Source: Anaerolineae bacterium
GTDB lineage: Bacteria > Chloroflexota > Anaerolineae > S140-20
Assembly: GCA_027021705.1 (NCBI GenBank)
Contig: JALUTT010000085.1
Location: forward strand, 1 to 64,000
DNA: 64,000 nt
Reading direction: 5' to 3'
In this document: one piece after another, positions 51,998-64,000 of the stretch
How the letters are laid out: each line of letters begins with the position of its first letter
Position numbering within the stretch: position 1 is the stretch's first letter
Program-made: the position numbers and the translations under genes
The notes under the pieces: model-generated
Seen by the model: the letters and a program-made list of their open reading frames with translations, nothing else
The model's database searches: none
Told to the model about the DNA's origin: nothing

Positions 51998-53944
51998 ATG
52001 CACGAGACATGGCGTGACTGGTATGAGGCTGTTCTGCGTCCCCTCCTTGACCACACCCCCGATGCTGAACCTTCTCCCACCTTGAAGAAGCTGCTCGCCC
52101 GCGATCCCGACGAAGTGGACCTGGCCCTCCTGGCCGCCGACACCGACCGTACCCAAAGCTACATCTTCGAGAGCGCCAAACTCCCCGAAATCCGGGGAGG
52201 AAGCGAGCTGCTTCGCCGCCTGAACCAGGAGGTCCTGCCCCAGATCGTGACCGACGCCGGCCTCCCCGCAGCGTGCGTGCTCTATGCCGGCGGTGGGAGC
52301 CTCCTGGCCCTGGTGCCCGCCTCCATCGCCGACGACCTGGCGGCTCAGATCGAGCGATGCTACCCCGACCGGACCGGCACGGCAACCATCACCTGCGTCT
52401 GGCGGCCTGTCAGCCCCCAGGAGGTCCTCCACGGCTGGGGAGGCACGACCTTCTCCCAAGACCAGGTCAACGCCCTGCGCGACCGGCTCACTGCTGAGGA
52501 CTGGCAGCGCGTCGCCCGCGCCTACGGCCTCTCCGACGGTGGCCCCATCCCCCCAGAAGCCTACCGGCAGCGTCGGGGCTTTGGGCAGATGGTCCAAGTG
52601 ATGGGCACGCTGCTGCGGCGGCGCAAGGAGACCCCGCCGGCCATACCCGTTGTTGAAGCCTTCCCCTTCGCCATGCGCTGCCAGGTCTGCCAAGTGCGTC
52701 CGGCGGAGCGGATCGCCCCCTACTTCGGCGAAGACCGGCCCCTCTGCGCCGCCTGTCAGCGTAAAGCAGGCGATGGACGAGCGCAAGAGGCCCGCAGCCA
52801 GCAGGTGAGGCGCTTCCTGGCCTGGCTAAAAGATCGGCCCGACCTCGAGGAACGCTACCTAGGTGACGCGGCCCGGCGCCGGGTCCACTTCACCCAGGAC
52901 TTGAACGAGTTGGGGGCCGCCTGCCGAGCACGGCCGGGGTACATCGGGCTCCTCTACGCCGACGGCAACCGGATGGGCCAGGTTCTGGAGTCCCTCCCCA
53001 CGCCAGAGGCCTACCGCCAGTTCAGCCAGGCCCTGAGGGAAGCCCTGGAGCACGCCGCCTACCAGGCCCTGGCAGAGCACCTCCATCCCATCCAAATCGA
53101 GCGGGTCAGCCCTACCGGAAAACCCCTGGGGAAAGGGTACATCCACCCCCTAGAACCCTTGGTCGCCGGCGGGGATGACCTGATCCTCATCGTGCCGGCC
53201 GATGTGGCGCTGCCCATCGCCCTCCGCTTGAGCCAGCTCTTCGAGCGGGAGATGGTTCAACGGGTGCCGGACGAGATATGGTCCTGGCTCCCCCCTGCCC
53301 TGCGCCACCCCACCCTCTCCGTCGGCGTCGCCATCGCCGACAGCCACAACCCCGTTCGGGTTCTCCAACAACTCTCCCGGGAACTCTGCAAGAGCGCTAA
53401 AGGTCGCGTCCACGAGGAGGAGGAGCAAGGCCACCCTCCCACCTCGGCCCTGGACTTCCTGGTGCTCAAATCCCAGAGCATGCTGCGCCGCGACCTCCGG
53501 CAGCTTCGCCGGCTCCCGCCCTACTACTACTCCGAGGACGGGCGTCGGCGGGGCCGCTTGATGACCGCGGCGCCCTACACCCTGGAGGAGGGCCGCCGGC
53601 TGCTGCGGCTGCTCAAGGCGATACGCCAGGCGAACACCCCCACCAGCCTTCTGCAGAACCTGGTGGCCGCGCTGCATCGGGGACGCAAGTACGGCTCGCT
53701 CCACTACCTGTACCAGCAGGCCCGCTTAGGTGGGACGCAGCCCCTGCTGACCCTCCTGCCCCGAGTCTGGCCCTACGACGACCGGCGGGACCCCATCCCC
53801 TGGCACCGCCTCCCTGGCGAGGAGGAAGTCTTCGCCACCATCGTGCCCGACCTGCTGGAGCTCTACCCCTTCGTGCCCAAACCGGCCCCCGACGATCTGT
53901 GGCGGGAGGTCCTGACGGAGGCAGACGATGAAGACGCGAATTGA
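51998..53944 (+). CDS. cas10: type III CRISPR Cas10, no HD domain, intact GGDD
   Basis: QSYIFES..LPEIRGGS, YAGGG, CQVC..CAAC, YADGNRMG, AGGDD (about 53165-53179). Confidence 0.92.
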   Translation: MHETWRDWYEAVLRPLLDHTPDAEPSPTLKKLLARDPDEVDLALLAADTDRTQSYIFESAKLPEIRGGSELLRRLNQEVLPQIVTDAGLPAACVLYAGGGSLLALVPASIADDLAAQIERCYPDRTGTATITCVWRPVSPQEVLHGWGGTTFSQDQVNALRDRLTAEDWQRVARAYGLSDGGPIPPEAYRQRRGFGQMVQVMGTLLRRRKETPPAIPVVEAFPFAMRCQVCQVRPAERIAPYFGEDRPLCAACQRKAGDGRAQEARSQQVRRFLAWLKDRPDLEERYLGDAARRRVHFTQDLNELGAACRARPGYIGLLYADGNRMGQVLESLPTPEAYRQFSQALREALEHAAYQALAEHLHPIQIERVSPTGKPLGKGYIHPLEPLVAGGDDLILIVPADVALPIALRLSQLFEREMVQRVPDEIWSWLPPALRHPTLSVGVAIADSHNPVRVLQQLSRELCKSAKGRVHEEEEQGHPPTSALDFLVLKSQSMLRRDLRQLRRLPPYYYSEDGRRRGRLMTAAPYTLEEGRRLLRLLKAIRQANTPTSLLQNLVAALHRGRKYGSLHYLYQQARLGGTQPLLTLLPRVWPYDDRRDPIPWHRLPGEEEVFATIVPDLLELYPFVPKPAPDDLWREVLTEADDEDAN

Positions 53945-55814
53945 CGTTCACCTGACCTTCGACGGCCCCTTCAACGTGGGCAGCGGAGCCATAGGCGGCT
54001 CGCTGGCCGACAAACCCCTGATCCGAGATGCCCGGGGGCTGCCTATGGTGCCTGCCTCCGCTTTCAAGGGCCGTCTGCGCCACGAGGTGGAACGGCTGGC
54101 CCCCATCCTCTGCCCCGATGATCCGCCGCCGTGTGGCTCCCCCCGCGCAGAGACGATGTGTCAGGGTGATGCGCCTCCCTGCCCCGTCTGCCGCCTCTTC
54201 GGCTCCCCTTGGCATCCAGGCCGGCTGACCTTCAGCGACTTCACGCTGGTGGAACCGGCCTTTCTGCTCATCGGGGAGCCTCCGCCGGGCCACCTGCGCT
54301 ACGGCGTCGGGCTCTCGCGCCAGCGTCGGGTGGCCGAGGACCAACTGCTCTACACGGTCGAGGTCTTCCTGCCCGGCACCCCCATCACCCTGAGCGGCAC
54401 GATCCAGGGCGATCTGGAGAACGAGGACCTCGTCCTGCTGAAAGCGGCGCTGGAGAACCTCCTCGCCGTCGGCGGGGGCAAGACCAAAGGGCTGGGCTGG
54501 TTTGAGATGGCCTTCCACATCCACCGGGAACCGGAGCCCGCTCCTCCCGCCCCCCTCTCGGTGGGTGACCAAGACGAGGTGCTGGAAGTCATCGTCCAGT
54601 TGGACTCCCCCCTGCTCCTGGGCCCCGATGCCGACGAGGCTTTCTACAAAACGACCCGGTCCTTCATCCCCGGCAGCGTCCTGCGGGGCTCCCTGGCCCG
54701 ACAGATGACTGCCGCCTGCGAACATGACCCGCAGGCCCCCCACGAGGGGTGTGACTTCGGTCGCCTCTTCGACGATGGCCCTGCTCCCATCTTTGAGCAT
54801 CTCTACCCCACCACCTCTCACGCCTGGGAGTTCCCCTTCCCCGCCCCGCTGACCGCCCGTTCCTGCAAGTACCATCCGGGCTTCGTTCACCCCCGTGCCG
54901 AGGAGGAGGGGGGCCACGGCGTCGGGGACATTTTGATCCCCCAGGCGGTCTTCGAGGCCATGCTGGACCGGGGGCTGCCCCTGCCGGCCCTCTACCGGCC
55001 CCGGTGCCCCAGGTGCGGGGCTGAAGTGGTCCCCTTCGACGCCTTCCTCCTGATGATCGAGGCCGACCGCTTCGACAGCATCGCCGTGCCCATCCGCCGC
55101 ACCTCTCACACGGCCATCAACCGGCAGCGGGCCGTTGCAGCCGACGGGCTGCTCTACACCCTGGAGACCATCGAGCCGTTGGACCACCAACGCCGTCCCA
55201 CCACCTTTCGGGGGCGGGTGCGGGCCTCGCCCGCCCAGATCGCCATCCTGGCCCATTGGCTCCCCCGGCTCTCCGCTCTAGGGCGGGGCCAGACCCGGGG
55301 CCTGGGCCACGTCCACGTTCAGGTTAAGCGCCCGGAGGAGACCCCCAACCCGCTGCCCCTCCTGGAAACACGCTTGCGAGATTTCAACACCGCATTCTGC
55401 CAGGAATGGGCCTTCTACGAGCGGGTGGTAGGGGCCGAGCCCCTGCCGGACGATCTCCTCTTCTTCAGCTTGGACCTCCTCTCACCCGCCGCCCTGACCT
55501 GGCACGGCGTGCCGGTCACGGCCCCACCCCCGGCGATGCTGGGCTTTGAGGGGGGCGTCCACCTGCAGCGGGCCTTCGCCCGCTACCAGATGGTGGGCGG
55601 CTGGCACCTGGGTGCCGGCCTGCCCCGGCGAACCCGCCCCGTGGTGGTGCAGGGAAGCGTCTTCCTCTATCGCTGCCAGGGCCTCTCCTTGGAAGCACTG
55701 GCTGCTCACTTGGCCCCCTTGGAGACCCAGGGCCTAGGGGAGGACCGGGGTCGGGGGTTTGGCCGTCTCCTGATCTGCTCTCCCTTCCATTACAAGCCGG
55801 AGGTGACCCTATGA
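53928..55814 (+). CDS. Cas7(Csm3-like)-Cas5 fusion, Csx10-like RAMP
   Basis: N-terminal RAMP VPASAFKG..CPVCRLFG..GGGKTKGLG; second FIPGSVLRG, GRGQTRGLG, GEDRGRGFG. Confidence 0.85.
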   Translation: MKTRIDVHLTFDGPFNVGSGAIGGSLADKPLIRDARGLPMVPASAFKGRLRHEVERLAPILCPDDPPPCGSPRAETMCQGDAPPCPVCRLFGSPWHPGRLTFSDFTLVEPAFLLIGEPPPGHLRYGVGLSRQRRVAEDQLLYTVEVFLPGTPITLSGTIQGDLENEDLVLLKAALENLLAVGGGKTKGLGWFEMAFHIHREPEPAPPAPLSVGDQDEVLEVIVQLDSPLLLGPDADEAFYKTTRSFIPGSVLRGSLARQMTAACEHDPQAPHEGCDFGRLFDDGPAPIFEHLYPTTSHAWEFPFPAPLTARSCKYHPGFVHPRAEEEGGHGVGDILIPQAVFEAMLDRGLPLPALYRPRCPRCGAEVVPFDAFLLMIEADRFDSIAVPIRRTSHTAINRQRAVAADGLLYTLETIEPLDHQRRPTTFRGRVRASPAQIAILAHWLPRLSALGRGQTRGLGHVHVQVKRPEETPNPLPLLETRLRDFNTAFCQEWAFYERVVGAEPLPDDLLFFSLDLLSPAALTWHGVPVTAPPPAMLGFEGGVHLQRAFARYQMVGGWHLGAGLPRRTRPVVVQGSVFLYRCQGLSLEALAAHLAPLETQGLGEDRGRGFGRLLICSPFHYKPEVTL

Positions 55815-56317
55815 GTGGGCAAGGACAAGGAACGAGCAACGGACGCGAGCAGAAACGCCAGCGTCTCCGCCGTCGCATGGCGATCCAACGCCAGGTGGAG
55901 CTGCGGATGAACCACCTCATCCGGCAGATGACCCAACTGGTGGATGCGGAGACGAAGGTGGCCGAGAGCCGGATGGAGAAGCACCAGATCAAGACCCTGC
56001 TGGGGGTGGCCTTGGAGACCTCCAGCGTCGAGGTCATCAAACACTACATCCTCTACCAGGTGGGGCGGGATGTGGCGGGCACGAACTGGCGTCACAACGA
56101 TTTCGGTCGGAAGCTGGTGAAGGCGCTGGACAGGCTGCGCCAGGACGCCGAGCGGATCACCCGGCAGGTCCACCGACAGCTCCGCCTGGAGGACCCCAGC
56201 CGGGAAGAGGTGGAGGAGACCTGGCTGTTGCTGGTGCGGGCCTACCTGGGCTATCTCAACCGCTACTTCTACTTTCGGAAGGAGGAGGCGCTATGGCCAT
56301 CGGCAACGAGTGGATAG
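55811..56317 (+). CDS. putative Cas11 small subunit
   Basis: All-helical 168 aa protein, YILYQVGR, position in type III operon. Confidence 0.65.
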   Translation: MSGQGQGTSNGREQKRQRLRRRMAIQRQVELRMNHLIRQMTQLVDAETKVAESRMEKHQIKTLLGVALETSSVEVIKHYILYQVGRDVAGTNWRHNDFGRKLVKALDRLRQDAERITRQVHRQLRLEDPSREEVEETWLLLVRAYLGYLNRYFYFRKEEALWPSATSG

Positions 56318-57159
56318 ACTTCACCACCTTTCACAACCGCCTGCGGGTGCGGGGGGTTCTGCACGCCGAGACGGCCCTGCGCATCGGTAGCGGGGAGACG
56401 AGCGGCCCCACCGAGCACGACCTGCCCGTCTTAAAGGACCTCTACGGACGTCCCTACATTCCCGGCAGTTCCTTCAAAGGGGCCTACCGCGCCCACTTGG
56501 AGCGGCTGCTGCGGGGGATGGACGAGCGGCTGGCCTGCCCCAGCACCACCCGCCCGCGCGGACGCGACGCCCTGCCCGGCTGCCTCACCCAGGAGGATGT
56601 GGACTACCTGAAGCGTCAGTACGAGGGCGACGCTCCCGGCCTGGCCCGTGAGATCCTGCGCCGCTCCTGCTGGACCTGCTCCCTCCTGGGCGCCCCCTGG
56701 CTGGCCTCCAAGGTCCTGGTCCGAGACCTGACCGTTGTCCCCGAAACTTGGTTCGAGCACTACCTTGTTCGCGACGGGGTTGCCATTGACCGGGACACCG
56801 AGACGGCGGCGGAAGGGCTCAAGTACGACTTCGAGGCCGTTCCCTCCGGCACAGCTTTCGCCTTCGAGATGGTCATCGAGAACGCCAGCGATGCCGAATT
56901 GGGGCTGGCCCTGCTAGGGCTGCGAGAGTTTGAAGAGGGTTACGTCTCCCTGGGAGGAGGAGCCTCACGGGGGCTGGGCAACGTCCGCCTGGTGCTGGAC
57001 TGGGAGCGGTCAGAGTGGCTGACAGCCTCGGACCTACGGGCCTACCTGGAACGGCGGACCGTCGGCAGCCTGGCCCGAGAGGAAGACCGTCAGCGCTACT
57101 GGCGGGCCTTCCTGGACGCGCTGGAGAGGGGAAAGAAGGAGGTAGAGGGCCATGCATAA
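56293..57159 (+). CDS. Cas7 group RAMP (Csm3/Csx7-like)
   Basis: LRIGSG..DLPVLKD..PYIPGSSFKG, RDGVAIDRDT, GGGASRGLG. Confidence 0.9.
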   Translation: MAIGNEWIDFTTFHNRLRVRGVLHAETALRIGSGETSGPTEHDLPVLKDLYGRPYIPGSSFKGAYRAHLERLLRGMDERLACPSTTRPRGRDALPGCLTQEDVDYLKRQYEGDAPGLAREILRRSCWTCSLLGAPWLASKVLVRDLTVVPETWFEHYLVRDGVAIDRDTETAAEGLKYDFEAVPSGTAFAFEMVIENASDAELGLALLGLREFEEGYVSLGGGASRGLGNVRLVLDWERSEWLTASDLRAYLERRTVGSLAREEDRQRYWRAFLDALERGKKEVEGHA

Positions 57160-58093
57160 GAAGTTGGTCAACGAGCTGCGCCTGACCTTCCGCATCCAGC
57201 CCCAGGGCCCTTTGCTCATCAAATCGGGCCGGGAGGCCGGGGCCGATCCCACCCTGCTCGACATGAACTTCGTGCGCACCACCCACGCCGAGCTAGGCCA
57301 TACTGTCTACCTGCCCGGCTCCAGCCTCAAGGGGGCCATACGCAGCTACTGCGAGAAGATCGGGCGGACGGTGGGGCTGAAGGTCTGCAACCCCCTGGAC
57401 GTGCGCGATTCCTGCGGCCGCCGACTGGAGCGCAAGGCCAAGAGGGCCACCGGCGCGGAGATCTACCGGCAGCTTTGCCCCATCTGCTGCATCTTCGGCC
57501 ACACGGTCATGTCCAGCCACATCCGCTTCGACGACGCCTACCCCACACCGGAGACGGTGGCCGTGGTCAACGAGACGGAGGAGCGGGATGGGGTGGCCAT
57601 AGACCGGGTGTCCGGGGCCGTGGCCGTAGGGCCATTTCAGCTCGAGGTGGTCACCCGAGGCGAGTTCCTCGCCGGCCTGACCCTGCGCAACTTCCAGCTC
57701 TGGCAGGTGGGCCTGCTGGCGGTGGCCCTACGGGATATGGCCGAGGGGCGCGTCCCCTTGGGTTTTGGCCGCAGCCGGGGGCTGGGGCGCGTCCGCTTGC
57801 GCTACGACCGGCTGGAGATCACCTATCCCGGCCGCTTCCACGACGATGGCGGGCAGAAGTTCGACCAAGCCCTCTACGGGGTCACAGCCCTGATGTCGGC
57901 TGCCGATGCCGAACCCTACGGCTTCTACCCCGAAGACCCCCTGCCCCTGCCCGTCTCCACGACACCCGTCAGCGAGTGGGGGCGCGTCAGCCTGGTCTAC
58001 GAAGACCCCGGAGCGATCATCCGGCTGCTCAAGGCAACGGTGAAGCCCTGGAGCGCCTACGTGGCGGCGATGACGCAGGGAGGGAACCGGTGA
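57152..58093 (+). CDS. Cas7 group RAMP (Csm3-like)
   Basis: YLPGSSLKG, CPICCIFG, RDGVAIDR, GFGRSRGLG. Confidence 0.9.
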   Translation: MHKKLVNELRLTFRIQPQGPLLIKSGREAGADPTLLDMNFVRTTHAELGHTVYLPGSSLKGAIRSYCEKIGRTVGLKVCNPLDVRDSCGRRLERKAKRATGAEIYRQLCPICCIFGHTVMSSHIRFDDAYPTPETVAVVNETEERDGVAIDRVSGAVAVGPFQLEVVTRGEFLAGLTLRNFQLWQVGLLAVALRDMAEGRVPLGFGRSRGLGRVRLRYDRLEITYPGRFHDDGGQKFDQALYGVTALMSAADAEPYGFYPEDPLPLPVSTTPVSEWGRVSLVYEDPGAIIRLLKATVKPWSAYVAAMTQGGNR

Positions 58094-58680
58094 GCGAGCG
58101 ACCCCACCTCTACCACCGTTTTGTGGCCCCCGAGGAATTGGCGGCGACTCTGGAGGCTCTGAGGGCCACCTACGTCCTGGACTACCTGTACTGGGAGTCC
58201 GAGGCCACCATCGAACTGACGGCCTACCGCACGCCGGATCCGGCGTGGTCCCACGGGCGGGCCTTCGGTCCGTCGCTGGAAGTGCGCTGGCAACGGACCG
58301 GCGAGGGGTTCGAGATGCTGCTGCTGACCGAGAGGCCGCTCCCCCTGCCCCAGGGGTGGCAACCCCTGCCGGAGGCCACTGCTGGGGGGCAAGGAGAGGC
58401 CGATACCCCGTTTCCCTACCCGGACTCGGTGGACTCCCCGGCGCAGGTGCTGCTCTGGGGCACCCACATTCGCCACCTCCAGCACCCCCACCGGCTGGCG
58501 GGTGGCGAGGGGGATGTCTGGATCGAGACGCGCATCCCCCGCCCCCTGCGCTATCCGGTCCGGGGAGCCCCCCCCTGGGTCAAGGCCCGGGTCATCACCT
58601 ACCGCTACCGGGGGCGTCCTGTGCTGACCCGCCTGGTGAGTCTGGAAGGAGAGAAGCATGAGCCCGAGACCTCCTGGTGA
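58090..58680 (+). CDS. Csx19-like protein
   Basis: GTG start overlapping upstream stop; GRAFGPSLEVRW, LLWG, TRLVSL; typical III-D position. Confidence 0.7.
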   Translation: MSERPHLYHRFVAPEELAATLEALRATYVLDYLYWESEATIELTAYRTPDPAWSHGRAFGPSLEVRWQRTGEGFEMLLLTERPLPLPQGWQPLPEATAGGQGEADTPFPYPDSVDSPAQVLLWGTHIRHLQHPHRLAGGEGDVWIETRIPRPLRYPVRGAPPWVKARVITYRYRGRPVLTRLVSLEGEKHEPETSW

Positions 58681-59671
58681 TGAGTTCGTTCCCAAGCCTT
58701 ACAACTTCGTTCCCTTCCCCCAGAAGGTAGAGCGCTTCCGGGTGCCCGGCCACGAACGGCTGGACCTGGCGGACCACTACAGCGGTCGGCTCACCTATCG
58801 CCTGCAGGCGCTGACCCCCGTCTTCGTGGGCACCGGCACCTACGCCCTGGGCGAGGACGTGGGCTTCCCCCGGGCACTGGTCGTCCGTCCCTTCTACCGG
58901 GTGCGCGGCGAGCCTACCATCCCCGGTTCCTCGTTGAAGGGCGTGGTCCGCAGCATCGTCGAGGCCGTCAGCCCTTCCTGTGTCACCGTCACCCGCATCG
59001 CCCCCCACAAGCTGCCCCCAGGGGTGGAACTGGCCCAGGGCCGGCGCCGGGGTTGCAGCCCCACCCAGGCCTGTCCGGCCTGCAACCTCTTCGGTCGGGT
59101 GAGCCAGTCGGCGAAGGTCCATTTCAGCGACGCCCACCTGGCCGAGGGGGGGAAGACGGCCCTCTTCCGGCTGACGCCTCTCTTCGCGCCCCGCGCCTTC
59201 CGCTCCCCACCCGTCTACCTGAACGATGAGGGAAAGTTCAAAGGGCGCAAGTTCTACTACCACAGCCGGCCGGCCGAGGACAGCCGCCAGCCTCCCGTCG
59301 AGGTGATCCCCAAAGGGCGGCAGGTGACAGGGGAGGTGACCTTCGAGAACCTGCGGATGGCCGAACTGGGCCTCCTCCTCTTCGCCTTGGGGCTAGATGG
59401 CACCCTTACCCTCAAGCTGGGTGGCGGCAAACCCGTGGGGCTGGGCTCCCTGCGAACGGTGGGGGCGACGTTGGCCCTGCTGGAGGCCGACCACTACACC
59501 CAGGCCGAGGCCCAGGAGAGGACTTATCGTGGGAAAGCGCTGGCCGACTTCGTAGGGCAGGCCATTGATGCCGCCCTGAGCGAAGGTATCCTCCTGCGAG
59601 AGCAAGCCCTGGAGCTGGCAGAGATCCTGACCTTCACCCAAGATCGTTCCGCCCCTCTGAGGTCCTACTGA
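58658..59671 (+). CDS. terminal Cas7 group RAMP
   Basis: PYNFV, IPGSSLKGVVRS, CPACNLFG, GRKFYYH, KLGGGKPVGLG. Confidence 0.88.
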   Translation: MSPRPPGDEFVPKPYNFVPFPQKVERFRVPGHERLDLADHYSGRLTYRLQALTPVFVGTGTYALGEDVGFPRALVVRPFYRVRGEPTIPGSSLKGVVRSIVEAVSPSCVTVTRIAPHKLPPGVELAQGRRRGCSPTQACPACNLFGRVSQSAKVHFSDAHLAEGGKTALFRLTPLFAPRAFRSPPVYLNDEGKFKGRKFYYHSRPAEDSRQPPVEVIPKGRQVTGEVTFENLRMAELGLLLFALGLDGTLTLKLGGGKPVGLGSLRTVGATLALLEADHYTQAEAQERTYRGKALADFVGQAIDAALSEGILLREQALELAEILTFTQDRSAPLRSY

Positions 59672-59766: not shown

Positions 59767-60111
59767 ATGGCGATGAGCAAAGCGGATTGGGCCAAAGCCG
59801 ACGCCATTGCCCGCCGGTTGGCCAAGGACGTAGACCGCAACGAGCTGGGCAAGATCGTGGCCTATGCCCACCGTGTCCGCGATCCAGGGAAGGTGATCAC
59901 GCTGGCGCAGCGCCTGCCCCAGAGCGGCTATGTGCGCAGCAAGCGCACCCGAGGCTACCTCCAACGAATCGCCCGGGTCCTGAGCGACGAACTGGCCGGC
60001 CTGGAAAGAGAGCGGGCGCTCGCCATCCTGGCCTGGGCTTTCCGATTGCTCACCACCTACCAGACGGAGATGGGCACGGGCAAGGCAGCCGGGCGGAGGC
60101 AAAGAGGCTAG
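59767..60111 (+). CDS. small basic helical cas-associated protein (possible second Cas11-like)
   Basis: GAGGAGG RBS; 114 aa helical; ILAWAFRL near C-terminus. Confidence 0.55.
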   Translation: MAMSKADWAKADAIARRLAKDVDRNELGKIVAYAHRVRDPGKVITLAQRLPQSGYVRSKRTRGYLQRIARVLSDELAGLERERALAILAWAFRLLTTYQTEMGTGKAAGRRQRG

Positions 60112-60161
60112 CCTTTCGCCTTTAGTTGAACTGGGGTAAAGCCATGTTGGGAGAAGCCCCG

Positions 60162-61427
60162 ATGGAATTTCTTGAGAGAGAGATTCGCGATCTTCAGGAA
60201 GAGCTGGACAGCATCGAAAAGCGCAGACACATCTTTCAGGGGCATGTGCGCCATCTCGAGGAGCGAGCAGCCATACAAGGTGGTGAACACAATCTCTCAC
60301 TCGCTGATAGAACTCAATTGGAACGTGTTCGTGAAGTGTTTGAAAAGCTTGACCTACAAATGCAGGACCTCCAACGCCAGTTAGTAGACAGGCTTGATAG
60401 ATTGCAGAGAGCTCAGGAGGTGGAAGCACTTGAGAAAGCGCTAGACGAGGCCATCGAGCAAGAGAATCCTAGTCTTGTAAAAAGTATCGCCGGGCAGTTG
60501 AAAAGCCTGGAACCGTCCCGTGCAGAGACGGTTGATCTGAAGCTCACGCGCTACTATTGGAGAGCAGTTATAGCTATGGAGCGCACCAGGAATTTTGATG
60601 GCTGTAGGCAAGCATGGGAACAGTTGGAAGCCCACTGCTATCGAACTGGTGACGAAGAGGGCCTTGGCAATGCCCGTGAAGGACTGGCACGCTTATTTGA
60701 GCAGCAAGGTGACAAGGAGGCTCGAGAGGGAGGATTTACCCAGGCCATCCATCTCTACCGCCAGGCCTACAAAAAGTGGTGCGAGGTAGGAACAGGAGAA
60801 GACGCACTATTCGCCCAGCAGCGTGTCTTAGGGAAACAGGCCCAAGCGTACGAGAATCTGGAACAGCTTGAAAAAGCATTGCACTGTAGTTATGATCGGC
60901 TAGAACTGCTGACGCAGATGGGACGATTACAAGAAGCCAAGCCTTGCTACCGCCAAGCCATAAAGTTATGCGCCAGGCTCTCCGGCCCACAGCGTGATGA
61001 TTGGGAGTATAGACTCACCAGCCTCTATGTCGAGTGGCTTAAAGACCTTGAGAGCCCCTCGGAGATTCAGGAAATCGCCGACCTCGGTCGTCGTGAGAAC
61101 AGACCAGCAATTTACGAACCTGCCACTTATGCCCTAAAGGATCTCAGTATCTTGATCCCACAGCCGTTACACCTCCGAGAGAGACATCGCTCCCCACCAG
61201 GAGAACCATCGCGCGATCTGACCATCCGACAGCGCTGTGCTGACTTGGACAAACTGATTGCCGAAGCCCAAAAGCTTCTCAGGGAGTTCGAGGAGCTCCG
61301 CCTCCTGGCCGATGATCCCAAGAAAAAGCTTCGGCTGGAACGCCAGATCGCCGACCTGAAGGCCCAGATGAAGGATTACGAAGCGGAGTATCAGGAGCTA
61401 CAGTGCCACGAGCTAGAGGGGAGGTAA
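60162..61427 (+). CDS. coiled-coil/TPR-like protein with terminal helical modules (Y'-TPR-X)
   Basis: TPR-like segments (AIHLYRQAY, AKPCYRQAI); C-terminus shared with next gene; lower GC; start could be 60144. Confidence 0.75.
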   Translation: MEFLEREIRDLQEELDSIEKRRHIFQGHVRHLEERAAIQGGEHNLSLADRTQLERVREVFEKLDLQMQDLQRQLVDRLDRLQRAQEVEALEKALDEAIEQENPSLVKSIAGQLKSLEPSRAETVDLKLTRYYWRAVIAMERTRNFDGCRQAWEQLEAHCYRTGDEEGLGNAREGLARLFEQQGDKEAREGGFTQAIHLYRQAYKKWCEVGTGEDALFAQQRVLGKQAQAYENLEQLEKALHCSYDRLELLTQMGRLQEAKPCYRQAIKLCARLSGPQRDDWEYRLTSLYVEWLKDLESPSEIQEIADLGRRENRPAIYEPATYALKDLSILIPQPLHLRERHRSPPGEPSRDLTIRQRCADLDKLIAEAQKLLREFEELRLLADDPKKKLRLERQIADLKAQMKDYEAEYQELQCHELEGR

Positions 61428-62090
61428 GGCTTGATGACCGATCATTTGGATGAAGAAGTGGAACACCTGCGCGAACTCCTGCGCACCCATCGGCGCACCT
61501 TGATGATCCTGGAAGAGCAGATCGCCCAGTTCACCGAGATGGAAGCCCCCGTCCACAAGCTCAGCCAGCGGGATCAGGTACGCGCCGAGATCCAGCGCCT
61601 GGAGGCCCAGCTGCAAGCTTTGTCGTCGCAAGGGGGCCGTCAGGCATCGCAGGCATCGAAGGAAAAGCCACCTCGCAAGACTGATTCCACCGGTCGCAAC
61701 CAGCGCCAACAGCGTTGTGACTCCTTAGGCGAGTTGATCCGCGACGCTCAGGCCCTGCTCAAAGAGTACGAGGAGCTTCGCCTCCTGGCCGATAATCCCA
61801 AGGAAAAGCGTCGGCTGGAACGCCAGATCGCCGACCTGAAGGCCCAGATGAAGGATTACGAAGCGGAGTATCAAGAGCTACAGTGCCACGAGCTAGAGGG
61901 GAGGTAAGGCTTGATGACCGATCATTTAGATTTAGAGAAAGAAGTGGAACACCTGCGCGAACGCCTGCGCATCCATCGGCGCACCCTGATGATCCTGGAA
62001 AAGCAGATCGCTCAGTTCACCGAGATGGAAGCCCCCGTCCATAAGCTCAACCAGCGGGATCAGGTACGCGCCGAGATCCAGCGTCTGGAG
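61229..62090 (+). repeat. about 376-bp direct repeat with 480-bp period (61229-61604 / 61709-62090) spanning gene ends and starts
   Basis: Near-identical core 61289-61604 vs 61769-62090 with a 6-bp indel. Confidence 0.93.
61434..61907 (+). CDS. two-module (Y-X) small helical protein, putative adaptor
   Basis: N-terminus nearly identical to that of the 61914 gene; C-terminus similar to that of the 60162 gene; GAGG RBS. Confidence 0.75.
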   Translation: MTDHLDEEVEHLRELLRTHRRTLMILEEQIAQFTEMEAPVHKLSQRDQVRAEIQRLEAQLQALSSQGGRQASQASKEKPPRKTDSTGRNQRQQRCDSLGELIRDAQALLKEYEELRLLADNPKEKRRLERQIADLKAQMKDYEAEYQELQCHELEGR

Positions 62091-63194
62091 AAGGAGCTTC
62101 GTGCTCTGGAGGCCCAGCAGGTCGTGGGTGTCAGCCCGCCGCCAGAACCAGAACCTTCACACCCCTCCATCCGCGTCTTCATCAGCGGCACCATCCGAGA
62201 CCTCCGGGCCGAGCGAGAGGCCGTGGAACAGGCCCTCCGGCACCTCGATCTGGAAACCCTGCGGGCCGAGACCATCGGCTCCCAGTCGGCCAGCCCCTAC
62301 GAGGTCAGCCTGATGCTGGCCCAGCAGTGCGACATCTACCTGGGCCTCTACGGCGGACGCTACGGTACCATCGTGCCCGGCGATGGCCGCTCCATCACCG
62401 AGATCGAGTATCAGACCGCCCGCAACCAGGGCAAACCGATCCTCATCTACCGCAAGAAGGGGGTAGAGGTAGAGCCGGAACAGGAAGAGTTCCTACAGTT
62501 CGTCGGCGACCTGACCGGCGGTCACATCTGGCGGGAGTTCGGCCCCGATGACGTGCCCGACAACCTGATGGCCTGGGTGCAAGAGGACGTGCGGGCGGAG
62601 GTTCGGCGTCACCCCGAGTGGGCTCGGCGTCCCCCGGCCCGGGGCCGCGTCCTCCTGGCCTCCCTGGGCCGCTCGCCCGGGGCCGTCACCGGCCTCTACC
62701 ATGCCCTGGTCCGCGACGGCAAGCCGGTCACCCGCGTCGTCACCTTCTCCTCCACCCATCGGGATGTGCGCGACGCGGCCGGCATCTGTAGGCAAGAGTT
62801 CCACTGGCTGGGGGTCCCCTACGCCAACCGTCTCATTGACGCCGAAGACATCGCCAGCGAGGACGATGCCCGCGAGTTCAAGTCCTGCTTCTACGGTCTG
62901 CTCCAGGAGAGCCTGGGGAGCGGCGCTGAGGTCCTGGTGGGCATCACCGGCGGGCGGACGGTGATGGGAGCGCTGATGGCCGTCGTCGTACAGACCACCG
63001 CCCCTGGACAGGCCGCCCTCTACCACCTGGACGTGGACGACGACATCGAGGAAGACGGTCGCCTGCCCCGGCTGTGGGATTTCGAGGGCACGGAGCGGTG
63101 GCGGGAACTCCTGGACCCACCTCCGGAGAAGTGTCGGCTGGTCCGAGTGCCTTACGTCCGCTTCCCAAGCCAATCCTCCGCCGGCGGCCGATAG
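61914..63194 (+). CDS. Y module-DUF4062-CARF (Csx14/NE0113-like) fusion
   Basis: RVFISGTIRDL..ER, CDIYLGLYGGRYG, SITEIEY; LLASLGRSPGAVT, EDI.S..D, ITGGRTVM, LYHL. Confidence 0.78.
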   Translation: MTDHLDLEKEVEHLRERLRIHRRTLMILEKQIAQFTEMEAPVHKLNQRDQVRAEIQRLEKELRALEAQQVVGVSPPPEPEPSHPSIRVFISGTIRDLRAEREAVEQALRHLDLETLRAETIGSQSASPYEVSLMLAQQCDIYLGLYGGRYGTIVPGDGRSITEIEYQTARNQGKPILIYRKKGVEVEPEQEEFLQFVGDLTGGHIWREFGPDDVPDNLMAWVQEDVRAEVRRHPEWARRPPARGRVLLASLGRSPGAVTGLYHALVRDGKPVTRVVTFSSTHRDVRDAAGICRQEFHWLGVPYANRLIDAEDIASEDDAREFKSCFYGLLQESLGSGAEVLVGITGGRTVMGALMAVVVQTTAPGQAALYHLDVDDDIEEDGRLPRLWDFEGTERWRELLDPPPEKCRLVRVPYVRFPSQSSAGGR

Positions 63195-63216: not shown

Positions 63217-64000
63217 ATGCCCACGGTCGTCACGGTCCACCTCTCCACGGCAGATCCGCTCTTCTTCGACGAGACCTGGCCCCTGGAGACGCCCTTCCGG
63301 CAGCTCCTGGCCGCTGCTCACCCATCCCCACCGCCGACCGGGGGGCAACACGACGCCTTCCTGCCCTACACCCTCTCCCCCCTCTGGCGGGTCCACCGCC
63401 GGCAGCGCCCCAACCCGGGGAGGGCAACCCCGACCGCCTACCGATGGCGGATCTGCCTCCTCGACGACGCCCTCGCCCCTCCCCTCCTGGCCGGCCTCCA
63501 GGCGATGGAGACGCTGGCGCTGCAGGGTGCTTCCCTCACCGTCGAGGAGGTGACCGTCGAGGCGCAGAGCTACCCCCAACTCGCCCGCCAGGCCCAGGAG
63601 CAGGTCGGTGGCCGGCCCGAGAGCGCCCGCCGCCTCTCCCTGGAGTTCATCACCCCCGTCGTCCTGCACCGGTCCGGGCTCCCCATGCCCCTGCCGGACC
63701 CCCTCCTCGTCTTCCGCCACTACCTCCTCTGCTGGGACACCTTCGCCCCGCCGGAGCTCCGGGTCAACGTCAACCTCCTCGACGCCGTCGCCTTCCACGT
63801 CGCCCTGACGGAGCACCGGCTGGAGACCCGGCGCGTCCGGCTGGCGGGGAAGCCCCCCCGAGTCGGCTTCCTGGGGAACGCCACCTACACCGTGATGGCC
63901 TGGGAGAAGCTCGGCCCGGACTTCCTGGCGACGCTGCACGCCCTGGCCCGGTTCGGGGCCTTCTGCGGCACCGGTGAGATGACGGCCCAGGGTCTGGGGC
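63217..64000 (+). CDS. cas6: Cas6 endoribonuclease (3' end beyond window)
   Basis: Manual translation: PYTLSPL, LEFITP, PLPDP, GFLG, C-terminal G-loop CGTGEMTAQGLG. Confidence 0.85.
   Translation, partial: MPTVVTVHLSTADPLFFDETWPLETPFRQLLAAAHPSPPPTGGQHDAFLPYTLSPLWRVHRRQRPNPGRATPTAYRWRICLLDDALAPPLLAGLQAMETLALQGASLTVEEVTVEAQSYPQLARQAQEQVGGRPESARRLSLEFITPVVLHRSGLPMPLPDPLLVFRHYLLCWDTFAPPELRVNVNLLDAVAFHVALTEHRLETRRVRLAGKPPRVGFLGNATYTVMAWEKLGPDFLATLHALARFGAFCGTGEMTAQGLG

Follow-up and report, generated by a model that had tools for sequence, protein, structure and literature searches.

In the usual picture of type III CRISPR signalling, a diffusible nucleotide activates free-standing effectors. In Craspase, the type III-E gRAMP is bound by the TPR-CHAT protease Csx29, where TPR and CHAT are part of one polypeptide. 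Here we describe a cassette of three genes within a type III-D CRISPR-Cas operon of an Anaerolineae bacterium. The window, that is the whole stretch of DNA analyzed, covers positions 1-64000 of contig C85 (85.5 kb), which belongs to a draft genome (G000; 5.19 Mb, 94.9% complete), and the operon extends on the + strand from 51998 to ~64044. Gene 1 encodes a protein with a TPR-like region, gene 2 a small protein and gene 3 a protein with DUF4062 and CARF domains. Two helical modules of ~60 residues, X and Y, recur at the ends of these proteins. Craspase combines a TPR protein and a caspase-like protease with a type III system; similarly, the operon here encodes a TPR-like protein ending in X, and a CHAT protease carrying X is encoded elsewhere in the genome. 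Unlike in Craspase, the link between TPR and CHAT would be non-covalent, through X-X contact, and is purely conjectural.

The closest described modules are the effector-associated domains (EADs). They are defined as small and non-enzymatic; a core component carries one copy and effector or signalling domains carry others, often in a neighbouring gene, with adjacent copies most alike and numerous paralogues per genome (Kaur et al., eLife 2020, PMC7159879). Homotypic coupling of EADs is itself a prediction in that work. X and Y share with EADs, and with bacterial Death-like domains (bDLD) as covered in the available part of PMC8195603 (eLife 2021), that they are small, non-enzymatic, all-alpha and terminal. 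Like EADs, they have copies on scaffold and effector in adjacent genes, the adjacent copies being closest, and many paralogues, and their partners are caspase, CHAT, trypsin, TIR, STAND NTPases and FGE-sulfatase. A tie to the described families is given by fusions of both X and Y to EAD7 and of Y to bDLD1. Compared with the six helices of the Death fold, X and Y are shorter, two-helix hairpins. EAD systems have a vWA-MoxR, GAP1 or STAND core, whereas the core here is a type III-D operon with a predicted sensor of cyclic oligoadenylate (cOA), within which a gene of its own encodes a two-module bridge.

EAD-type domains on CRISPR accessory proteins have been reported. CARF/SAVED proteins with EAD7, TCAD9 and vWA-MoxR-VMAP are found near type III loci (Altae-Tran et al., Science 2023, PMC10910872, available part), and Csx15-EAD fusions have been listed (bioRxiv 10.64898/2026.10.26.761840, available part). 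As in these cases, a CRISPR accessory protein of the cyclic-oligonucleotide type here bears an EAD-kind adaptor, suggesting that CRISPR signalling connects with other conflict systems. The entries in the available parts of both sources carry named Pfam EADs, whereas the modules of the present cassette have no family name and occur with a DUF4062 enzyme, a scaffold and a bridge encoded side by side. The preliminary description of this locus had considered it undescribed. In view of these EAD-type fusions to CARF proteins and Csx15 this was too broad; it held for the DUF4062-CARF fusion, the X and Y families and the operon-encoded two-module bridge, for which the literature searches made gave no description, although supplements may list them.

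In CBASS and type III CRISPR, sensor-enzyme fusions are represented by TIR-SAVED and CARF-TIR effectors (Hoikkala et al., NAR 2024, PMC11229360, available part). Gene 3 resembles them as a predicted cOA sensor fused to a TIR-type NADase, with assembly-dependent activity and NAD+ depletion as the expected output. It differs from the effectors in that part of the source by having DUF4062 in place of a canonical TIR domain, a Crn1/Cad1-like CARF in place of SAVED, an N-terminal hairpin, and partner genes. DUF4062 is a TIR-like, glutamate-dependent NADase in phage defence according to the available texts of three 2026 bioRxiv preprints, in which "CARF" has 0 occurrences. With the DUF4062 (NIR) systems in these texts, Swarozyc, Evangelion, Vulcan, Vesta and Avs2-DUF4062, gene 3 shares the domain, its conserved glutamate, a variable sensor and the logic of abortive infection. 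As described there, these systems sense phage proteins via auxiliary, STAND or repeat domains, whereas the trigger of gene 3 would be a CRISPR-made nucleotide.

Hairpin modules and direct repeat in genes 1 to 3

The preliminary description had placed X at the C termini of genes 1 and 2 and Y at the N termini of genes 2 and 3, with gene 2 consisting of Y, a linker and X only. All three points were borne out. The two X copies are 77% identical over ~65 residues and the two Y copies 80% identical over ~70 residues, and hidden Markov models (HMMs) and an AlphaFold2 model (mean predicted local distance difference test (pLDDT) score of 80.1) left nothing else in gene 2. In this model, four long helices span residues 2-31 and 40-69 (Y) as well as 85-118 and 122-155 (X); since residues 68-85 between the Y and X hairpins are disordered, a flexible tether joins the two halves of gene 2. 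The same Y hairpin appears in the model of gene 3 (helices 2-33 and 42-70), where a floppy linker follows. The X modules of genes 1 and 2 are only 23-41% identical to the remaining nine X copies in the genome, and the Y modules of genes 2 and 3 are 36% identical to the Y of a small protein encoded on contig C40.

Neither module matched a Pfam, NCBIfam or PADLOC family beyond spurious coiled-coil hits; the Pfam matches of this type were weak (HALZ, FlxA, Lzipper-MIP1). X and Y had no detectable similarity to each other (hhalign probability 0.8%), and homology between them was rejected. Amyloid-type signalling motifs of the BASS-like kind were rejected as well, the modules being confidently helical. 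For a complex of whole gene 2 with the X of gene 1 and the Y of gene 3, three prediction runs without controls scored 0.02, 0.33 and 0.00, the mark being 0.32.

The modules lie in a diverged direct repeat of ~400 nt that crosses both gene junctions with a period of 480/486 nt. Positions 61226-61456 are 86% identical to 61706-61936 at a spacing of 480, and positions 61444-61622 are 89% identical to 61930-62108 at a spacing of 486. In each copy, a GGAGG site is encoded within the last codons of X, so that gene 2 has its own duplicated ribosome-binding site. As doubling of an X-stop-start-Y junction gives exactly one new Y...X open reading frame (ORF), gene 2 was most simply born by tandem duplication of the junction between genes 1 and 3, as judged from this geometry.

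Divergence along the repeat was uneven. A tract of ~118 nt over the stop/start junction (61331-61456 versus 61811-61936) differs in one base, whereas its flanks are 80-93% identical. The synonymous divergence (dS) was 0.23-0.36 overall and 0.75 in the first 36 codons of X, compared with 0.05-0.08 where the copies are almost alike, in the last 31 codons of X and the 20 codons with which Y begins. This pattern suggests that the duplication is old and that gene conversion acted across the junction afterwards, and the near-identical tract carries the signature of recent gene conversion. The ratio of nonsynonymous to synonymous divergence (dN/dS), from a small base of 31 differences in X and 22 in Y, was 0.35 for X and 0.39 for Y, which is modest evidence that both copies are under constraint. 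In the gene 2 orthologue P0021 (157 amino acids, 5 differences), 3 of the 5 differing residues are those of gene 1 or gene 3 of the window, which suggests exchange between the repeat copies. A 6-nt (two-codon) insertion at 61932-61937 sets the Y of gene 3 apart from that of gene 2 in the window; it is missing in a strain of a second study (run X2) and in the gene 3 orthologue P0002.

The possibilities had been raised that the repeat is an assembly artefact and that the Y-X gene is absent from all relatives. Two sequencing runs were compared as assembled contigs, not as raw reads; X1 is possibly the source sample, and X2 is from another study. Contigs of X1 tile the region without differences; one of them runs across the linker of gene 2 (61568-61840), and the depth of the near-identical core is double that of its flanks (114.8 versus 57.4). 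In X2, a 413-nt contig with 7 differences spans 61397-61809, which includes the end of gene 1 and the Y, linker and start of X of gene 2. The divergence of the copies, the contigs of both runs and the doubled core depth ruled out an artefact, and the repeat is real. Gene 2 is on record as P0021 and is intact in the X2 contig. When metagenomes were scanned with gene 3, the contig of the window was the sole match.

Distribution of X and Y and the sister operon

An HMM of X was iterated on the six-frame ORFs of the genome and detected X in 11 ORFs, genes 1 and 2 included. X is located at the C terminus of a CHAT protease encoded on contig C120 and at the N terminus of two NB-ARC proteins, one of them with TPRs, and was also found on an ORC/Cdc6-like ATPase, a TM-SH3 protein and a 1054-residue TPR protein. 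Three small proteins of the genome contain X, and the one on contig C40 (198 amino acids) has the order X-linker-Y. Y was present in three ORFs only: gene 2, gene 3 and this C40 protein. Outside the operon, the X genes stand singly amid housekeeping genes. Several of them have a low GC content at third codon positions (GC3), 0.53-0.71 versus ~0.85-0.9 for their neighbours. Judged by these copies, the X module is a lineage-specific expansion in this genome.

The HMM searches of Chloroflexota that had been proposed in the preliminary description detected X in 4 and Y in 22 of 401 sampled genomes, this one included in each count. X is thus rare. Two of the three other X-positive genomes also have Y, whereas X went unmatched in 19 of the 21 other genomes with Y. 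A set of 40 relatives includes three same-family genomes (91, 86 and 64% complete), in which X gave one marginal match only (E 0.0013).

In a large protein collection, the X profile gave 35 matches. Pfam was scanned for 32 of these, and the partners were caspase (4), NACHT (2), FGE-sulfatase (2), SH3 (2) and, in an X-EAD7 protein, EAD7 (1); a further match had TRADD-like_N just under threshold. Stand-alone X-linker-Y proteins are represented in the databases by P0005, P0013 and P0026. Further small X proteins with a second helical module are P0036, in which X is followed by another coiled-coil hairpin, P0004, P0008 and P0009, which makes them possible adaptors to further families of modules without a name. 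In the family of the C50 protein (~217 amino acids), an N-terminal domain of no assigned family precedes X.

A three-sequence Y profile was searched against 1.84 billion cluster representatives and matched 746 at E ≤1e-3 and 98 at E ≤1e-10. Partners were counted by the author at Pfam E ≤1e-5 in the 117 of the best 150 representatives that had at least 130 residues. EAD7 was the partner in 23/117, mostly in two-module proteins of 140-230 residues, followed by the STAND NTPases NB-ARC, NACHT or nSTAND (13/117), bDLD1 and TIR (7/117 each), Trypsin_2 (5/117), CHAT (4/117), Caspase, SIR2_2 and PNP_UDP_1 (3/117 each), and DUF4062, FGE-sulfatase and Metallophos (2/117 each). No family was assigned in 41/117.

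A sister operon was found on L049, a contig of an Anaerolineae metagenome-assembled genome that has the III-D gene order of the window. Its gene 3 homologue is 66% identical to gene 3; the other orthologues of gene 3 are P0002 (94%) and P0052 (65%), and P0002 and P0021 are each recorded on a 2894-nt contig. At the position of gene 1, L049 encodes a protein of 518 amino acids (L049:8621-10177) with a coiled coil, a weak TPR, bDLD1 (48.4 bits, cutoff 25), a bacterial Death-like domain, and a C-terminal Y. The Y-DUF4062-CARF gene starts 11 nt after this scaffold. Between effector and cas6, a protein of 139 amino acids (L049:11467-11886) is encoded, whose C terminus is 46% identical to the neighbouring Y (E 5e-7) and whose N-terminal half has no assigned family. 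The L049 cassette contains neither a Y-X gene nor X. The L049 genome as a whole has no X match, and its Y matches are restricted to the adjacent scaffold/effector pair. Gene 1 and its positional counterpart in L049 have no significant sequence similarity.

Since the L049 scaffold itself ends in Y, no bridge would be needed there. That a Y-ended scaffold goes without a bridge while an X-ended scaffold goes with a Y-X bridge is the strongest argument for homotypic coupling, which would predict this arrangement. The bDLD1 of L049 directly connects the cassette with the Death-like/EAD world. The homotypic X-X and Y-Y coupling in the preliminary description thus fits the fusion patterns and the module swap, and the contacts as such remain a prediction.

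X and Y have all four descriptive features of EADs given in PMC7159879. In size and fold, both modules are two helices of ~30 residues each, modelled with high pLDDT and lacking a catalytic family match; in placement, they are found on scaffold, effector and STAND partners and as adjacent-gene pairs here and in L049; and the copies in neighbouring genes are most alike, part of which is explained by gene conversion. The named Pfam models EAD1-11 and bDLD gave no match on X or Y at E up to 0.01-0.1, and the EAD7 and bDLD1 matches fall outside the X and Y segments of their proteins. X and Y are therefore EAD-like in behaviour and outside the named families. For the earlier proposal of EAD-type coupling modules, fusion partners and terminal placement were in favour, and membership in a named EAD family was not.

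Gene 3, gene 1 and the operon

The DUF4062-CARF architecture proposed earlier for gene 3 was confirmed and could be sharpened to a predicted TIR-like NADase. The AlphaFold2 model (mean pLDDT 88.4, predicted TM score 0.65) has the Y hairpin, a linker and two globular domains. A 25-sequence profile of the DUF4062 domain matched the KpSwz DUF4062 (1.4e-28) and TEP1 (2e-8) in the PDB. Glu165 is nearly invariant across the 25 sequences and aligns with the alanine of the deposited KpSwz mutant E97A. With a score above the cutoff and the catalytic glutamate kept, gene 3 belongs to the DUF4062 (PF13271)/NIR family. The activity of TEP1 is concentration-dependent and linked to oligomerisation in the available text of one 2026 bioRxiv preprint.

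For the CARF domain, Foldseek found the Crn1-type ring nucleases Sis0455 and Sso2081 (TM by target 0.64-0.70) and the CARF of Cad1 (0.75), with a probability of 1.00 for all three. PADLOC CARF and Csx1 models matched down to 1.3e-18, which places the domain in the CARF family. Scores for the ring-nuclease models stayed below the cutoffs (NCBIfam Csx14 37.8, cutoff 90.35; Crn1 18.2, cutoff 125), and unlike Crn1 and Csx14, which are stand-alone proteins of ~180 residues, the gene 3 CARF is fused in a protein of 426 residues. Gene 3 is best read as a predicted cOA-sensing NADase. It is the sole CARF protein among the 12 operon ORFs scanned with Pfam.

Gene 1 has an N-terminal coiled coil, a central TPR-like region and the C-terminal X hairpin. 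Two assignments of the preliminary description did not hold for this protein. A Y-like module (Y') at its N terminus was rejected, as the broadened Y HMM scored negative, hhalign gave a probability of 2.4% and BLASTP against the L049 Y gave E 0.29; the N terminus is a coiled coil that the Y profiles do not recognise. The TPR was below threshold (TPR_12 22.9 bits, Pfam cutoff 30.1). Its look-alikes in a protein atlas were TPR clusters at 0.85-0.86, all under 0.9, which is a lead only. The single homologue found, P0187, is 68% identical, and its contig ends before X. The GC3 of gene 1 is 0.55 compared with 0.82-0.89 for the cas genes, and that of the repeat region is intermediate (0.72-0.73). 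This foreign GC3 suggests that gene 1 may have been acquired or replaced later than the remaining operon.

The operon combines a Cas10 with a visible GGDD motif, Csx10, Csx19, Cas11/Csm2 and Cas7-type RAMPs in a single unit and is of type III-D. Profile scans did not detect an HD domain in cas10. Genes 1 to 3 are co-oriented, with csx21 5' and cas6 3' of them (Table 1). In this fragmented assembly, many CRISPR arrays are located on short separate contigs (C54, C155, C32, C106, C98, C121, C142 and C172), with up to 162 repeat copies on C54 and several different repeat sequences across the array contigs.

TABLE 1 Coordinates of modules, repeat copies, operon genes and X-bearing ORFs (window positions unless a contig is named)
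Feature	Position	Strand	Support
Gene 1 (421 aa from ATG; alternative start TTG at 60126)	60162-61427	+	
Gene 2 (157 aa; TTG at 61431)	61434-61907	+	
Gene 3 (426 aa; TTG at 61911)	61914-63194	+	
X copy 1, C terminus of gene 1	61221..61415	+	own-genome HMM E 6.5e-24; alignment
Y hairpin of gene 2	61434-61646 (aa 1-69)	+	HMM, AlphaFold2
Disordered linker of gene 2	~61635-61700 (aa 68-85)	+	pLDDT under 50
X hairpin of gene 2	61701-61895 (aa 85-155)	+	HMM, AlphaFold2
Y hairpin of gene 3	61914-62138	+	HMM, AlphaFold2
DUF4062 domain of gene 3, predicted TIR-like NADase	~62172-62627	+	Pfam residues 88-170, 73.1 bits (cutoff 24.7)
CARF domain of gene 3	~62646-63149	+	Pfam Cas_NE0113 residues 256-418, 46.1 bits (cutoff 23)
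Direct repeat copy 1: end of gene 1 (X), stop, GGAGG, start, Y of gene 2	61226..61622	+	
Direct repeat copy 2: end of gene 2 (X), stop, ribosome-binding site, start, Y of gene 3	61706..62108	+	
cas10 (648 aa), cyclase-type	51998..53944	+	Pfam Cas10-Cmr2_palm2 1.4e-22; NCBIfam Cmr2 88.3 bits (cutoff 79.4)
csx10	53928-55814	+	NCBIfam Csx10 229 bits (cutoff 177)
csm2/cas11	55811-56317	+	PADLOC III-D Csm2 model
csx7 RAMP	56293-57159	+	NCBIfam Csx7 186.9 bits (cutoff 108); Pfam RAMP
Second RAMP	57152-58093	+	Pfam RAMP
csx19	~58090-58680	+	PADLOC III-D Csx19 model
TIR03986-like RAMP	58658-59671	+	NCBIfam TIGR03986 142.1 bits, under cutoff 161.35
csx21-like small accessory gene (114 aa)	59767-60111	+	PADLOC Csx21 models 1.1e-14, 2.8e-14
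cas6	63217..64000, past window end to ~64044 (ORF L048:11787-12614)	+	Pfam CRISPR_Cas6 4.4e-13
X-bearing ORF elsewhere in G000	C40:18400-18996		
X-bearing ORF elsewhere in G000	C50:31872-32537		
X-bearing ORF elsewhere in G000	C36:8788-9984		
X-bearing ORF elsewhere in G000	C120:42956-44455		
X-bearing ORF elsewhere in G000	C8:14284-16212	-	
X-bearing ORF elsewhere in G000	C92:84766-87915	-	
X-bearing ORF elsewhere in G000	C75:1302-4463	-	
X-bearing ORF elsewhere in G000	C144:59684-60970		
X-bearing ORF elsewhere in G000	C144:63320-63706		

Apart from the operon, an intein with a LAGLIDADG homing-endonuclease domain splits a GDP-mannose 4,6-dehydratase gene of the genome (L011:12857-15148; G000 C120:48856-51147; Pfam Intein_splicing 4.5e-14, LAGLIDADG_3 2.8e-07).

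Proposed mechanism and rival explanations

The domain identities, the direct repeat, the fusion partners across both module families and the exchange of modules in L049 are observations. The reading that we consider on balance probable is that genes 1 to 3 form an accessory cassette of a cyclase-active III-D system, in which a cOA-triggered NADase is coupled by hairpins to a scaffold via the gene 2 bridge. Binding of target RNA would activate the cyclase of Cas10, and the cOA formed would bind to the CARF domain of gene 3. The DUF4062 domains would then assemble and hydrolyse NAD+, and NAD+ depletion would halt the infected cell. Gene 3 would dock through its Y on that of gene 2, which in turn would bind through its X to the X of the TPR-like scaffold encoded by gene 1; gene 2 X may also pair with the nine other X-bearing ORFs, among them the CHAT protease and the NB-ARC STAND NTPases. 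Gene 2 would be kept as a cis-encoded bridge, with gene conversion holding the paired copies alike. The scaffold could keep the NADase in an inactive state, seed its assembly or pass the signal on to other effectors. The identities in the steps up to NAD+ hydrolysis were assigned by homology, and the docking steps were deduced from comparative patterns; cOA binding, NADase activity, every protein-protein contact and the scaffold role are accordingly predictions. An extension of this scheme, in which Y-X and X-Y adaptors wire the cOA sensor-NADase into a genome-wide X network with the CHAT protease and the NB-ARC STAND sensors, appears unlikely to us.

Several results weigh against the bridged, cOA-triggered cassette. 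No full-length homologue of gene 3 was found in 400 genomes of the phylum or in the 40 relatives, and the cassette is rare. The sister operon in L049 does without the bridge. The ~10 kb downstream of cas6 contain no CRISPR array. Among the 21 other genomes with Y, 13 had a single Y match (15 first-look candidates were scored per genome), and such single-Y genomes would sit badly with an obligate homotypic pair. The modules match none of the named EAD or bDLD models, the dN/dS values have a small base, and the anatomy of gene 2 is exactly that of a by-product of tandem duplication. Finally, as the best structural matches of the CARF domain are ring nucleases and weak NCBIfam hits to Csx14 and Crn1 were obtained, this domain could mainly be a ring nuclease, gene 3 then damping the signal and not executing.

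Gene 2 might have arisen as a by-product of the junction duplication and have no role, genes 1 and 3 working or binding without it. The geometry of the repeat, with X-stop-start-Y occurring twice at a period of 480/486, is that of a junction duplication, L049 lacks such a gene, and full-length cassette relatives are missing from 440 other genomes. However, the copies are partly old (dS 0.75) and the ORF is nevertheless intact with dN/dS of 0.35-0.39; gene 2 is also intact in the strain of the second study and as P0021. Independent X-linker-Y proteins (C40, P0005, P0013 and P0026) are conserved elsewhere, and L049 has a small Y-bearing protein of its own, while its Y-ended scaffold needs no bridge. 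On this evidence we consider a functionless gene 2 improbable. A heterotypic pairing of X with Y in a four-helix bundle is another conceivable arrangement. Both modules are two-helix hairpins with helices of ~30 residues, small proteins that combine the two occur repeatedly, some with X first and others with Y first, and two of the three other X-positive phylum genomes carry Y. TPR-X and Y-DUF4062-CARF would have lain side by side until the duplication. In such a pairing, gene 1 X would bind gene 3 Y directly, and the Y-X and X-Y proteins would be head-to-tail polymerising or competing regulators. Yet Y mostly occurs in genomes lacking X (19 of the 21), the L049 genome has paired Y-Y genes and no X, and the two modules lack profile similarity (hhalign probability 0.8%). 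The 11 X copies on both sensors and effectors suggest X-X pairing instead, which makes the heterotypic arrangement quite unlikely.

It is also conceivable that X and Y are generic coiled-coil elements of self-association, with the likeness of neighbours due to duplication and gene conversion only. The weak coiled-coil Pfam matches (HALZ, FlxA, Lzipper-MIP1), the conversion tract across the junction and the need of TIR-like NADases for oligomerisation would agree with this. But across hundreds of proteins, a conserved motif distinguishes each family and the hairpin loop is fixed, and X and Y are strictly terminal, on the same conflict-system domains as EAD7 and bDLD1. Many of the proteins consist of two such modules only, which would be odd for simple self-association, and we regard this explanation as very unlikely.

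The cassette is a real and coherent feature and can, as a bridged effector-scaffold unit, be read as EAD-type coupling applied to a predicted NADase effector of type III CRISPR. In this operon, the sole CARF effector bears a docking module, and a scaffold and a bridge with matching modules are encoded alongside. The sister operon in L049 constitutes a natural module-swap experiment. If the contacts are real, EAD-type adaptors act on CRISPR effectors, cOA can drive DUF4062 NADases, and duplication of a ~480-bp junction can rewire adaptor specificity. As two compact hairpin families of ~60 residues, X and Y are candidate orthogonal protein-coupling tags. Should the wider X network exist, RNA-guided adaptive and protein-sensing innate immunity would converge on shared executioners in this organism, which would amount to a bacterial signalosome.

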